Source: Candidatus Dormiibacterota bacterium
GTDB taxonomy: Bacteria > Chloroflexota > Dormibacteria > Aeolococcales > Aeolococcaceae
Assembly: GCA_963709585.1 (NCBI GenBank)
Contig: CAVPXI010000023.1
Coordinates: 49,045 to 113,044 of the forward strand
DNA: 64,000 bases
Reading direction: 5' to 3'
Below, one piece after another: positions 16,551 through 30,867 of the stretch (the first letter of the stretch is position 1; every line of letters starts with the position of its first letter). Under the pieces are notes generated by a model, which saw nothing but the letters and a program-made list of their open reading frames with translations, did no database searches and was not told where the DNA came from. Both the position numbers and the translations under genes were made by a program.

Positions 16551-16667
16551 TCCGGTGATCATAGCGGTGGGGAAACACCTGTTCCCATCCCGAACACAGC
16601 AGTTAAGCCCACCAGCGCCGATGGTACTGCCCTGGCAACGGGGTGGGAGAGTAGGTCGTTGCCGGGT
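16551..16667 (+). rRNA. rrf: 5S rRNA
   Basis: CCCATCCCGAACAC, GTTAAGCCCACCAGCGCCGATGGTACT, GAGAGTAGGTCGTTGCCGGG. Confidence 0.97.
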
Positions 16668-16765
16668 ATCTCTCTTTTGTTTTCCGGGCTCTGAGGCGGA
16701 TTTGTATATGAAACAGAGCAGGTAAGTGCTAAGGACATATAGCACGGCGCTAAAAGAGTAGATAA
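16659..16765 (+). repeat. att-like site A (attL type): core overlapping the 5S 3' end plus right arm
   Basis: TTGCCGGGTATCTCT 16659; AAACAGAGCAGGTAAG 16711 (+52); TAGCACGGCGC 16740 (+81); extra AAAAGAGTAGATAA 16752. Confidence 0.85.
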
Positions 16766-16773
16766 TAGCGGCG

Positions 16774-17690
16774 ATGCCGAAGCGCGCCGCCGCCCCGCAG
16801 CTCACCCTCGAGGGCGCCTGGCAGAGCTTTGACCGCTCCCTCCGAGCCGAGGGACGATCGCCCGAAACCCGGCGCGCCTATGCCCAATCGGTCGCTCAGT
16901 TCGGGGCCTATCTGCGCGACCGGAGCCTGGCGTCCGAGGTGGCCCTGATCGACCGCGGTGACCTCGAGAACTGGATCATCACCCTCCTCGACTCCCGCAA
17001 GCCCGCCACCGCAGCCACCCGTCACCACGCCCTGGCTCGCCTGTTCTCGTGGCTGGTGGCCGAGGGCGAACTGGATCGCTCCCCGATGGAGCGGATGGAA
17101 GTGCCGAAGGTCCCCGAGAATCCTCCGACCGTGCTGAGCATCGAGGACATGCGGCGCATCCTGGCGGTGTGCAAGGGCACCGAGTTCGATGAGCGCCGCG
17201 ACGCGGCTATCTTGCGCGTGCTGGTCGATACCGGCCTGCGCCTCGCCGAGCTCACCGGCCTGACCTTGGATGACGTCGACCTCGATGAGGGGTTGGCAAC
17301 AGTCACCGGCAAGGGCGGCGCCGCCGTGCCGTGCCACTCGGCGCGAAGTCGACGGCCGCACTCGACCGATACCTCAGGGTCCGCCACGCCCACCCGCACC
17401 ATCGCAGCTCGCACCTTTGGCTCGGCCAGAAAGGTCCGCTGACCGCGACCGGGATGCGCCAGGTGGTGCAGCGCCGGGCGCGTCAGGCAGGGTTGGATCA
17501 GCGCATCTGGCCGCATCTGTTCCGGCATACCGGCGCACATCAATGGCTCGCCGCGGGTGGCTCCGAGGGCGACCTGATGAGCCTCTATGGGTGGCGATCG
17601 AGCGCGATGCTGCGCCGCTACGGCTCGTCAGCGGCAGCCGAGCGCGCCCGCAAAGCGCACGCCGACCTCTCGTTGGGCGACCGGGTATGA
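16774..17690 (+). CDS. Tyrosine recombinase/integrase, about 305 aa, 1-nt frameshift near 17320
   Basis: Catalytic set DTGLR (R), GKG (K), PHLFRH (HxxR), YGW (W), RRY (Y), split over ORFs 16774..17442 and 17331..17690; adding one C restores GKGGRRRAVPLG. Confidence 0.9.
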
Positions 17691-18055
17691 CCGGGCTGCT
17701 CGCCGCCCGGATGGGCAAGGACGGCGCCGCGGTGCTCTGTGGCCAACCGACCTGTCCGTGCGAGATCGGGAGGATGATGGGCGCGCATCTAGTCGTGGCG
17801 CGCGGCCTGGTCGAGGTCCGCGATCCCCTCGGCAAACCGTATGACCCGCCGTGCTACGCCCAGCCTCGCAGTGTCGTCAAGCGTGTCCGCCACGCCGTGA
17901 TCGCGGGGACGAGACCGACATTGCGGCCCAGGGTGCAAGCCGCGACGCCCGCGTGGACCGTGGACCGCGTGGTCTTCCTGCCACAGCACCCGGAAGTGTG
18001 GGTGAAGTGCCCACGCTGCGGGAACCAGAGCAGGGTCCGCCCACGAGGTACCTAG
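17687..18055 (+). CDS. Hypothetical Cys-containing protein
   Basis: ATGA overlap with the integrase stop; CGQPTCPC and CPRCG motifs. Confidence 0.55.
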   Translation: MTGLLAARMGKDGAAVLCGQPTCPCEIGRMMGAHLVVARGLVEVRDPLGKPYDPPCYAQPRSVVKRVRHAVIAGTRPTLRPRVQAATPAWTVDRVVFLPQHPEVWVKCPRCGNQSRVRPRGT

Positions 18056-18177
18056 TAAGCACGGCGAACAAGACGCCGTGCTAGAGTACGTCCGTTCGTT
18101 ATCAGTAGCGCCGGATCGTCGGCCTCTGCCCTTTGGCTTCCATCCCATCGCGGGAGTGAGCGGGGCGAGGTCACGGC

Positions 18178-18444
18178 ATGCCCCTCGATCCCGCTGCCCG
18201 AACGCTCCGAGCCCGCATTGGCGCTTTCGCCATGCACTCGAAACATCCCATCGAAGCGACAACTCGCGGCGGCCTGGACGCCGCCTGGCAACGCTTCGTT
18301 CTCGAGGTCGATCCGGACGGCTTACTGTCTGAGTCGGAGCGCACGCGGCGAGCCAAGGCTGCGCAGCGAGCTCATATGGCCAGGATCGCGCTTCGAAGTG
18401 TGCAAGCCCGACAGGCGGCGAAGTCTTCAGGAGAATCGGGGTGA
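18178..18444 (+). CDS. Conserved hypothetical protein of phage-like islands
   Basis: RARIGAFAMH...RFVLEVDPDG...ERTRRAKAA...ARIALRS resembles small proteins I recall from actinobacterial phage-related islands. Confidence 0.65.
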   Translation: MPLDPAARTLRARIGAFAMHSKHPIEATTRGGLDAAWQRFVLEVDPDGLLSESERTRRAKAAQRAHMARIALRSVQARQAAKSSGESG

Positions 18445-29095: not shown

Positions 29096-29400
29096 ATGAC
29101 GTTCCCGAGGAGGAGTTACCGGACGTGACTGACGCTGCGCACGCTGTGGTCCAGGAGGCCAAAGACGCCGGCGTGTTTGTGTTCGCCGGCGGACTGCAGG
29201 ACCACCAGGAAGCGAGCGTCGTGGCCATCGACGGGACGATCACCGACGGCCCGTACCCGGAGAGCAAGCAGTTCCTCGGCGGATTCACAGTCGTCGACGT
29301 GCCCTCACGCGCCGAGGCGCTGGAGTGGGCTGCCAAGCTCGCGGTCGCCTGCCGATGTGCTCAAGAGGTTCGCGAGATCCTGTTCGACCCGACCGTCTGA
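29096..29400 (+). CDS. YciI-family protein; probable 1-nt frameshift near 29106, possibly 5'-truncated
   Basis: VFAGGL, TITDGPYPESKQFLGGF, ALEWAAK, QEVRE motifs. Confidence 0.75.
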
Positions 29401-29456
29401 TCGCAGACCCTCAAGCGGATCAACGATCCCGCCGCCCTCCAAGACAACTGATCCTC

Positions 29457-29632
29457 AAACACAGCAGATAAGTGGGAGCCGTACGCTCGACCCACCCAGG
29501 ATCAGAGTAGCCGAGGGCACAGCGCTAAACGCCTGGATGGTTGCCGGGTATCTCTCTCTTGTTTTCCGGCCTCTGGCGCTGTTCTGTATTCGAAACCGAG
29601 CAGGTAAGCGCTCAGGCGACATAGCACGGCGC
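29457..29632 (+). repeat. att-like site D with both arms
   Basis: AAACACAGCAGATAA 29457 (-84), GGGCACAGCGC 29515, core 29541, AAACCGAGCAGGTAAG 29593 (+52), TAGCACGGCGC 29622 (+81). Confidence 0.88.
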
Positions 29633-29684
29633 CAAGCGAGGCGACCCCCCCAACGCTCCACATCGATCTGAGAGATTAGGCGCG

Positions 29685-30680
29685 ATGCTCAGATACATCG
29701 TCAGCCGCGTCCTGCAGGCGGTGCTGGTCGTCATCGGCGTCGCGACAGTGGTGTTCTTCCTCGAGCGTCTGATGCCCGGCGACCCGGGAAGGATCATGCT
29801 GGGACCGCGCCTCGGCCCGGCCCAGTGGGCGATCTACGACCATCAGAACGGGTTCGACCAGCCGATCCCGGTCCAGTACATCGACTTCCTCGCGAATCTT
29901 TTCCACGGGAGGATCGCCTTCACGCCGCCGGGATTCGCCGACCAGATCGACCCCTTCGAGGGTGGCGTGGTCGACGTCGATCTCCAGTCGCTGGTTAAGG
30001 GACCGATGATCAACTCGCTGATCCTGACTGGTCTGTCGACACTGTTGGTGATAGCCCTCACCATCCCCATCGCCCTCTACGAAGCGGCACGGCGGCGCCG
30101 GCGTGGAGCGCACCTCTCAAACATCATCTCGATGACGCTGTACTCGATCCCGCCGTACCTACTGGGCACGTGGCTCATCCTGGTTCTTGCGACGGATCTG
30201 AACTGGATCAATCTGAATACGCCGAATTGGAGCACGGGCGATGTACTCGCCGATCCGGCGGCGCTGATTCTCCCCACGCTGACCCTGTCAACGGGAACGG
30301 TCGCGCTGTTCACCCGCTATCTCCGGGCGTCGACGATCGATGAGCTGACCAAGGACTACATCACAACGGCGCGAGCCAAGGGCGCCTCCCGCTCCCGAGT
30401 CAGCCTGCGCCATGCGCTCCCCAACGCTTCGTTACCGATCATCACCCTGCTCGGCACGCGCCTTCCCCAGATCTTCGGTGCCCAGCTCGTCGTGGAGGTG
30501 CTTTTTGGATATCCGGGGCTGGGAACCACGCTGTGGAGCGCAGCGATGAATCACGACTTCTACTCCATGCTGGGAGCAATCCTGATCGCTGGCGTTCTCA
30601 CCACTCTCGGCTCGCTGATCACCGACTTGATCTACGCGGCGGTCGATCCTCGTATCCGATATGTCCATGCTCGGAGCTGA
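29685..30680 (+). CDS. Peptide/nickel ABC transporter permease (OppB/DppB-like), orphan
   Basis: MLRYIVSRV, MPGDP, EAA loop DYITTARAKGAS, RHALPNA, DLIYAAVDPRIR; no other ABC genes nearby. Confidence 0.92.
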   Translation: MLRYIVSRVLQAVLVVIGVATVVFFLERLMPGDPGRIMLGPRLGPAQWAIYDHQNGFDQPIPVQYIDFLANLFHGRIAFTPPGFADQIDPFEGGVVDVDLQSLVKGPMINSLILTGLSTLLVIALTIPIALYEAARRRRRGAHLSNIISMTLYSIPPYLLGTWLILVLATDLNWINLNTPNWSTGDVLADPAALILPTLTLSTGTVALFTRYLRASTIDELTKDYITTARAKGASRSRVSLRHALPNASLPIITLLGTRLPQIFGAQLVVEVLFGYPGLGTTLWSAAMNHDFYSMLGAILIAGVLTTLGSLITDLIYAAVDPRIRYVHARS

Positions 30681-30692
30681 TTCGCGCGCCCC

Positions 30693-30867
30693 AAAGACAG
30701 CAGATAATTCGGGCTCGCTCGCTAAGGACATGCAAGATACATAGCGTGCGATAGCACGGCGCATAGTCCCGTATGCTTGCCGGTATCTCTCTTGTTTTCC
30801 TGGCAGCAACCGAGCTTGCGTTGTCGAAACTGAGTAGATAACTGACTCAGCGTCGATCGCACACCGC
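30693..30867 (+). repeat. att-like site E, left arm plus degenerate right arm
   Basis: AAAGACAGCAGATAA 30693 (-84), TAGCACGGCGC 30752 (-25), core TTGCCGGTATCTCT 30777 (one G short), AAACTGAGTAGATAA 30827, TCGCACACCGC 30857. Confidence 0.8.

Follow-up and report, generated by a model that had tools for sequence, protein, structure and literature searches.

The 64,000-nt window analysed here, a stretch of contig CAVPXI010000023.1 of Candidatus Dormiibacterota bacterium, contains directly behind its 5S rRNA gene a tandem array of five units, designated E1 to E5, which are separated by repeats of the 3' end of that gene. This array probably arose (with a likelihood of roughly 0.7) by tandem accretion of integrative elements at a chromosomal attachment site (attB) provided by the 5S gene, followed by decay and mosaic recombination. 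As in known cases of tandem accretion with cis-mobilisable elements (CIMEs), the units are bounded by direct repeats of a core shared with the target, and their gain or loss falls exactly at these cores. For this known process, the 5S gene is a new target and the array an unusually miniaturised case; it is no new kind of integron. The host is an uncultured high-GC bacterium whose assembly comprises 3.52 Mb in 24 contigs, and the genomes to which it was compared are metagenome-assembled bins.

The 5S rRNA gene (16551..16667, + strand; Rfam RF00001, 107 bits) closes an rRNA operon that bears group I introns detected with Rfam. Its final 9 bases together with the 6 bases past its end make up a 15-mer, TTGCCGGGTATCTCT, hereafter the core, which represents the attB side. 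The recurrence of the 5S end, described in an earlier note on this DNA, is exact at 16659, 25629, 29031 and 29541, with 4 copies observed when 0.04 are expected and a count of 4 reached in none of 100 shuffles; the fifth copy, at 30777, reads TTGCCGG-TATCTCT and has one G deleted. Two further conserved motifs, box A (AAACAGAGCAGATAA-like, always on the + strand) and box B (TAGCACGGCG), occur at -84 and -25 from the core on the left and at +52 and +81 on the right, in agreement with the offsets proposed in the earlier note. The accompanying statement that every copy carries these boxes stands in general and fails in four places, as detailed below. Away from the 5S locus, neither the core nor box A (searched with up to 3 mismatches) recurs in the 3.52-Mb assembly, apart from weak 3-mismatch matches.

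Five junctions, all on the + strand, can be delineated in the window. In J0 (attL; 16659..16766), the left flank is the 5S gene itself, and the core (16659-16673) is followed by a T-rich run, box A (16711-16725), box B (16740-16749) and a third, box A-like sequence (16751-16766) that stops 7 nt short of the integrase ATG. J1 (25545..25719) consists of the left arm of E1 (box A at 25545, box B at 25604), the core (25629-25643) and the right arm of E2 (box A at 25681, box B at 25710). J2 (28946..29045) comprises the left arm of E2, with box A at 28946 and box B at 29005 (1 mismatch), and the core (29031-29045), with no boxes on its right side. In J3 (29457..29631), the left arm of E3 has box A at 29457 and a degenerate box B (GGGCACAGCG), and the core (29541-29555) is followed by the right arm of E4 (box A at 29593, box B at 29622). 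Finally, J4 (30693..30841) is formed by the left arm of E4 (box A at 30693, box B at 30752), the 1-nt-deleted core (30777-30790) and a right box A located at +50 (30827), a clear right box B being absent.

In a set of 19 well-aligned junctions drawn from three genera, the mean pairwise identity reaches 0.95 for the core, 0.81 for box A and 0.85 for box B (0.79-0.85 for the boxes overall) versus 0.35-0.57 for the spacers and 0.27 for the sequence outside the arms, which bears out the claim that the boxes are kept while the spacers diverge. Misassembly, which had been named as a possible source of the repeats, is unlikely since similarity between the copies amounts to only 72-83% beyond the core and the same junctions recur in independent assemblies. 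In the alignments, the core region takes the form GGATGC-TTGCCGG-GTATCT. Its right half, GTATCT, is related in inverted orientation to box A (..AGATAA), and GGATGC is of the same type. The 3' end of the single-copy 5S gene probably acts as attB for a family of integrative elements present in this bacterial family. The attP of each element would span ca. 190 bp, with the 15-bp core, whose sequence is that of the host 5S end, between a left (P) arm and a right (P') arm. Crossover would occur in the 7-bp overlap TTGCCGG, between the imperfect inverted half-sites GGATGC and GTATCT; the box A copies may represent extra half-site-like recombinase sites in both arms, and box B may bind an accessory protein.

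Several palindromes occur in the arms. The right-arm box A (25686-25701 and its equivalents) lies within a short palindrome, GAGCA..TGCTC, whose halves co-change in other genomes (GAGTAG..CTACTC, CTGAGT..ACTCAG) and which may be a putative dimer-binding site. The palindromes CTCG-N7-CGAG in the left arm and CTGAG..CTCRG in the right arm recur with a few compensatory changes, though inconsistently, and are only possible dimer-binding sites. A derivation of the left arm from a diverged 3' half of the 5S gene was considered and rejected: box A matches 5S loop C at 14 of 16 bases and the remainder is not collinear.

This resemblance to loop C, as well as a 5-bp GC hairpin and a T-run that overlap the core (one junction was flagged as terminator-like), would suit a scenario in which the repeats function in RNA and not as DNA recombination sites, copies placed along an rRNA read-through transcript serving as 5S-like signals for processing or termination. 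Such a scenario is very improbable. Folding z-scores calculated against dinucleotide shuffles for 21 junctions were -0.09 for the left arm, -0.35 for the right arm, -0.01 for the top strand and -0.03 for the bottom strand, with means of about 0, and a terminator scan found 10 candidates when 9.5 are expected from shuffles. No Rfam family matched at the junctions, and an RNA-level role leaves the insertion polymorphisms located exactly at the cores (see below) unexplained. Arms and whole sites fold no better than shuffles on either strand, supporting their interpretation as sequence-defined duplex sites and not as attC-like hairpins; a conserved structure of the attC or RNA type was likewise rejected, the RNAalifold consensus being weak and the folding z-scores near 0.

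Comparison of closely related alleles reveals how the array differs from strain to strain. An exact-protein look-up with the E4 permease retrieved four further assemblies. The window has the order 5S-E1-E2-E3-E4-E5, with E5 truncated. In two contigs 99.7% identical to it (L107 and L108), the order is 5S-E2-E3-E4-E5-J5 and the first junction is composed of the 5S gene, the core and the right arm of E2, E1 being missing exactly at the core. A metagenome contig from JGI (L117) displays 5S-E3-E4-E5, with E3 and E4 sharing 95% and 97.7% identity with their window counterparts and with a first junction made of the 5S gene, the core and the right side of E3. All breakpoints for the presence or absence of E1 and of E1 plus E2 in these four sequences fall exactly at cores, which supports the earlier note's view of the segments as att-bounded units piled up at the 5S end. 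Judged from these sequences, the three states would form a series in which each new unit is 5S-proximal, the reverse reading being a succession of losses from that end. The nearest species-level genome, with a 91-93% identical flank, has no arms behind its 5S gene. Since the integrase is located inside E1 and is missing from E1-free alleles that already hold E2 to E5, it was not what assembled the older part of the array and does not belong to a fixed platform.

Import of E1 together with the rRNA operon by homologous recombination was rejected because differences in the rRNA region between E1-free and E1-bearing alleles are limited to introns and arm, with no imported tract. As a separate observation on this operon, group I introns were located with Rfam in the 3' region of the 16S gene as well as within the 23S gene (window 10618-11400 and 14160-15450); their content varies between the 99.7%-identical strains, the window being ca. 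230 bp longer than L107 at 15113-15440, and the majority of the rRNA-region differences between the window and its sister strains fall in introns.

Similar arrays are widespread in relatives. Junctions directly 3' of the 5S gene were found in 24 of 61 relatives by BLAST with one junction, and in 36 of 117 genomes of the family, belonging to four genera, by a profile search with a sequence-only covariance model of the junction (R1). In every case, the 5S gene lies on one side of them and a conserved flank with a tRNA-Leu gene on the other; they delimit one to five modules of 0.5-5.5 kb each, the contents and order of which differ, so that the variability predicted by the earlier note was indeed recovered. 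The cargo includes TetR and SDR genes, a methyltransferase, a NosD-like protein, a sulfide-quinone-reductase-type operon with an ArsR regulator, an acetyltransferase, TetR with a metallo-beta-lactamase-fold protein, an IS256-type transposase, lipoproteins and YCII proteins, and occurs on both strands, divergent pairs and operons included. In one genus (g23), the 5S gene ends in TTGCCGGATATCTC and the junction repeats have the same A substitution; the repeats following the genus's own 5S variant are tied to recombination with the resident 5S gene. One genome of the host's genus (G012) has two rRNA loci (L027 and L028), each with its own junctions behind the 5S gene.

E1 (16674..25628, + strand), the presumed newest arrival, is a 9-kb element that, read from its genes (Pfam and PHROGs), looks like a phage satellite. 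Its first gene (16774..17690, +) encodes an XerC-sized tyrosine integrase of ca. 305 aa (PF02899 and PF00589), with a SAM-like N-domain from residue ca. 18, followed by a catalytic domain in which HLFRH and, C-terminally, LRRYG are visible. It occupies two frames with a switch near 17320-17335, PF00589 positions 3-66 and 62-170 being in different frames; although its frame is broken, it combines the PF00589 catalytic domain and the SAM-like core-binding domain that define tyrosine recombinases. It is too short to include a lambda-type arm-binding domain. Two exact inverted copies of box B, for which only four further exact copies exist in the rest of the genome, are located just downstream of the integrase (17847-17856 and 18074-18083, - strand) and may be regulatory sites. 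Next come a DUF3631 replication-type gene (18441..20019, +), split by one extra A near 19037, and, all on the + strand, genes for an HNH protein (20267-20641), a large terminase (TerL; 20663-22258), an ORF product (22267-22626), an HK97-type capsid protein (22746-24287) and an S78 prohead protease (24417-25124).

No portal, small terminase, tail or lysis gene was detected in E1 with Pfam and PHROGs. This gene set, i.e. integrase, replication, packaging and capsid functions in about 10 kb and no tail or lysis genes, corresponds to that of phage satellites resembling phage-inducible chromosomal islands (PICIs). Capsid-forming PICIs are likewise small elements with an integrase, a replication gene, HNH, large terminase, capsid and prohead protease, a likeness that concerns E1 only; E1 differs from PICIs by its integration at the 5S gene and by its undetected portal and small terminase. 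The DUF3631 gene is intact (524 aa), lacking the extra A, in a public short-read contig 99.9% identical to E1 (L111), indicating that the E1 frame breaks may be assembly indels or very recent decay; the single-base breaks at ca. 19037 and 17320-17335 are possibly long-read assembly indels rather than real pseudogenes. With its other genes intact and a 99.9%-identical copy in another sample, E1 looks recently active. Exact-protein look-ups with three E1 proteins returned no match.

E2 (25644..29030, +) is a 3.4-kb integrase-less module with the features of a decayed satellite mosaic. It comprises a segment (25820-26581) that is 95% identical to an off-locus site in a congener, an ORF (26483-26881) homologous to the E1 ORF at 22267-22626, a membrane protein gene (26939-27568), a relic of the 5' end of an E1-type capsid gene (27682-27825) interrupted by stops, and a gene for a secreted PT-rich protein (28042-28770). 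The E1-like ORF and the stop-riddled capsid relic occur in the same order as in E1, which identifies E2 at least as a decayed satellite. The earlier note had named integrase remnants inside each segment among the signs of plain decayed tandem prophage-like elements, and the relics in E2 go part of the way towards this.

The three remaining modules, also on the + strand as is all cargo in the window, are simpler. E3 (29046..29540) is a 0.5-kb module with one YCII-domain gene (about 29125-29400), homologues of which exist in 5S arrays of other species and elsewhere. E4 (29556..30776), of 1.2 kb, carries one DppB/OppB-type ABC permease gene (29685-30680). Its cargo (29661-30688) shares 86-87% identity with a chromosomal locus of congeners encoding a substrate-binding protein (SBP) and permease, and 79% with the copy in its own genome, the homology extending from ca. 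25-35 nt upstream of the start codon to 8 nt past the stop. In both E3 and E4, the arms are complete and a single intact ORF occupies all but a few bases of the interval that they enclose. The truncated E5 (30791..31915) contains, from 31018 on, a lipoprotein gene with homology to an att-bounded module, M1, found in other species. Relative to sister strains, a 2.4-kb deletion between GCCGGC microhomologies (31910-31915) has removed its distal junction, J5, and joined the lipoprotein gene to the 3' portion of a gene of the Peptidase_A4 type, resulting in a chimeric ORF (31018-32217). In sister assembly L107, J5 is intact (10602-10772) and follows a full E5 lipoprotein gene.

Single-ORF modules of 0.5-1.2 kb with complete arms, such as E3 and E4, raise the question of a dedicated cassette system, i.e. 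a functional analogue of integrons in which two arms enclosing one captured chromosomal gene are routinely moved at the 5S gene by integrases acting in trans and supplied by transient satellites or phages. The E4 cargo, a single chromosomal gene with tight boundaries, fits this proposal, as do arms under purifying selection across three genera and the lack of an integrase in most arrays. So does a 2.1-kb integrase-less TetR-SDR module with an 85-bp right arm, which stands first in the array, 5S-proximal and hence newest, in four species and takes second place in a fifth, with 92-96% identity. Copies of its cargo with 94-97% identity also lie at many loci other than the 5S gene, amid unrelated flanks, one of them on contig C14 of the window's own genome. 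The left end of this cargo cuts a gene after ca. 20 codons, showing that capture is real but not always ORF-precise, and the order E2-E3-E4-E5 is the same in four assemblies of the species. No circles were seen, E2 has been shown to be a decayed satellite, a lone permease would make improbable selected cargo, the gene orientation, mixed in relatives, speaks against a common promoter logic, and modules present in more than one species frequently differ in the arm on one side. On balance, a dedicated cassette system is unlikely. On the left of the TetR-SDR cargo, 12 nt in from its end, lies a pseudo-core (TTGCCGGG), which was rejected as the crossover point since homology runs across it.

In integrons, cassettes bounded by attC are recombined with attI by IntI, and attC sites are imperfect palindromes recognised as folded single strands, their structure being conserved and their sequence variable; the cassettes are mostly single genes that lack a promoter and point the same way as the promoter of the platform. 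The 5S arrays resemble them in being composed of short, often one-gene units bounded by recombination sites, the content of which varies between relatives. In contrast to integrons, they have no IntI, no fixed platform of attI, integrase and Pc promoter, no folded attC and, in relatives, a mixed cargo orientation, and the two sequence-conserved arms of each unit would form a classical attP. The integron-like nature advanced in the earlier note is therefore not retained: the integrase lies inside the newest element, E1, the sites show no excess folding, and cargo orientation is mixed in relatives. Its remark that only the first segment encodes an integrase did hold in domain searches of the array. 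A bolder view, according to which a working cassette economy operates on a classical attP/attB tyrosine-recombinase site, with minimal units of host genes entering and leaving the 5S 3' end via integrases lent by passing satellites or phages, would imply that integron-like gene sampling evolved independently of IntI/attC; it is unlikely to be correct.

The recurrence of modules with different arms on one side in several species also bears on the opposite proposal, in which the junctions are fossils of old integrations that have ceased to recombine and modules are exchanged between strains and species by homologous recombination on the rRNA operon plus the ca. 35-bp core and T-run or the downstream flank. 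The rRNA exons are near-identical between strains and species, the core and its flanking run (GGATGCTTGCCGGGTATCTCTCTTTTGTTTTCC) are long enough to seed recombination, and modules are mosaic, with shared cargo and differing arms. Moreover, the integrase of the window is frameshifted, and another deletion in the array arose via a 6-bp microhomology. Conservation across genera of boxes located far from the core, when the spacers drift, is not expected for dead sites; between the E1-bearing and E1-free alleles, otherwise 99.7% identical, the difference is precisely the element, with no imported tract, and E1, represented by a 99.9%-identical copy in another sample, looks recently active. Exchange between fossil junctions is accordingly rather improbable.

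Several data weigh against tandem accretion followed by decay as the origin of the array. Most arrays in relatives have no nearby integrase, and a second, unrelated tyrosine integrase (L021, 16320-17372) was found in a 5.5-kb module that also carries a Peptidase_A4 gene (M1 of G019), where it starts beside the left-arm box A and reads towards the 5S gene. With two unrelated integrases next to the same kind of arms and none in most arrays, the E1 integrase is a candidate cognate recombinase. In addition, it is frameshifted in this assembly, and decay does not obviously explain intact single-ORF modules such as E3 and E4, the latter with tightly cut chromosomal cargo. No circular junction or excision product was observed; a 35-mer specific to the E1 attP was unmatched in JGI metagenome contigs, a result that is uninformative as the samples of this organism are in ENA and Logan assemblies.

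Other searches for a recombinase gave the following picture. The M1-type integrase of G019 occurs in just 5 of 42 genomes of the genus, and no common dedicated recombinase was found. Around 10 tyrosine recombinase genes are present in the genome, that of E1 being the only one in the array. Relatives of the E1-type integrase across GTDB amount to 55 loci, none with a 5S-type att site, and within the genus a homologue more than 40% identical occurs in one genome only, away from the 5S gene. Every genome compared encodes a ca. 35% identical Xer protein; this host Xer was considered as the recombinase but is not favoured, the core being presumably unlike a dif site.

Taken as a model, tandem accretion at the 5S gene would proceed as follows. 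A tyrosine integrase would join a circular element, the presumed intermediate, to the 5S-proximal site, an insertion that would restore the 5S end and push older residents outward. E1, a satellite-like element with its own XerC-sized integrase, would be the latest arrival, and E2 an older satellite that has lost integrase and head genes and acquired other DNA, E3, E4 and E5 being possibly minimal units of arms and one gene. Candidate routes for the spread of integrase-less modules are integrases acting in trans, co-excision with a neighbour, and homologous recombination on the 5S gene and the conserved junctions.

Tandem accretion with cis-mobilisable elements is known from Streptococcus arrays in which integrative and conjugative elements (ICEs) stand together with CIMEs (ICESt1/ICESt3). 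The 5S array has in common with them an integrase-bearing element beside integrase-less units, direct att-core repeats and gene-proximal entry of new arrivals. It differs in that its target is the 5S rRNA gene and its integrase-bearing member is a capsid/terminase satellite and not an ICE; its modules are far smaller (0.5-3.4 kb, some with a single ORF) and stand up to five in a row, and its junctions each retain ca. 190 bp of conserved arms.

In Dehalococcoides, tandem islands occur downstream of the single-copy stable-RNA gene ssrA, each ending in a repeat of the gene 3' end; they are strain-specific and many have no integration module, these having been proposed to be cis-mobilisable or fixed (PMC3146451). 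The 5S array is alike in its tandem islands behind a stable-RNA gene, its 3'-end repeats, its many integrase-less units and its strain-specific contents. The Dehalococcoides islands rely on a serine recombinase module and a 20-bp tmRNA repeat and measure many kb with rdhA operons, whereas the 5S array has a tyrosine integrase, the 5S gene as target and mini-modules. The tycheposons of Prochlorococcus are tyrosine-recombinase elements with PICI-like and cargo-carrying forms, whose repeated integration at one RNA gene pushes older ones outward and leaves degenerate remnants and partial-gene repeats (10.1101/2020.12.28.424599). Both systems involve satellite-like and cargo elements that repeatedly enter one RNA gene. 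Tycheposons are defined by integration at tRNA genes through a clade of tyrosine recombinases of their own and leave remnants described as fragmented, whereas the target here is the 5S rRNA gene and the integrase-less units have complete two-sided arms.

No description of the 5S rRNA gene as an integration target was found in the literature searched, an absence that is no proof of novelty. With these data, the 5S rRNA gene joins the stable-RNA genes (tRNA, tmRNA) that serve as anchors for integrative elements, and three successive allelic states drawn from public assemblies document the stepwise building of a hypervariable island in an uncultured soil lineage. The unusual part is the small modules, with complete two-armed sites around a single gene that in one case is a fresh copy of a congener's chromosomal gene. 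Should they prove mobile, they would offer a tractable case of gene-cassette birth, still an open question for integrons; should they be immobile, they would provide a clear example of satellites decaying into accessory-gene islets.

Finally, two other repeated segments were observed. A TetR plus SDR segment of ca. 1.95 kb (C14:175886-177834; L099-L104) is 94-97% identical across many species of the genus, with flanking genes at ca. 70-80%; it occurs in unrelated contexts with variable ends, without transposase or recognisable termini, and looks hyper-mobile. A ca. 550-bp segment at 33773-34331 of the window occurs throughout the genus in several copies per genome that are 73-80% identical.

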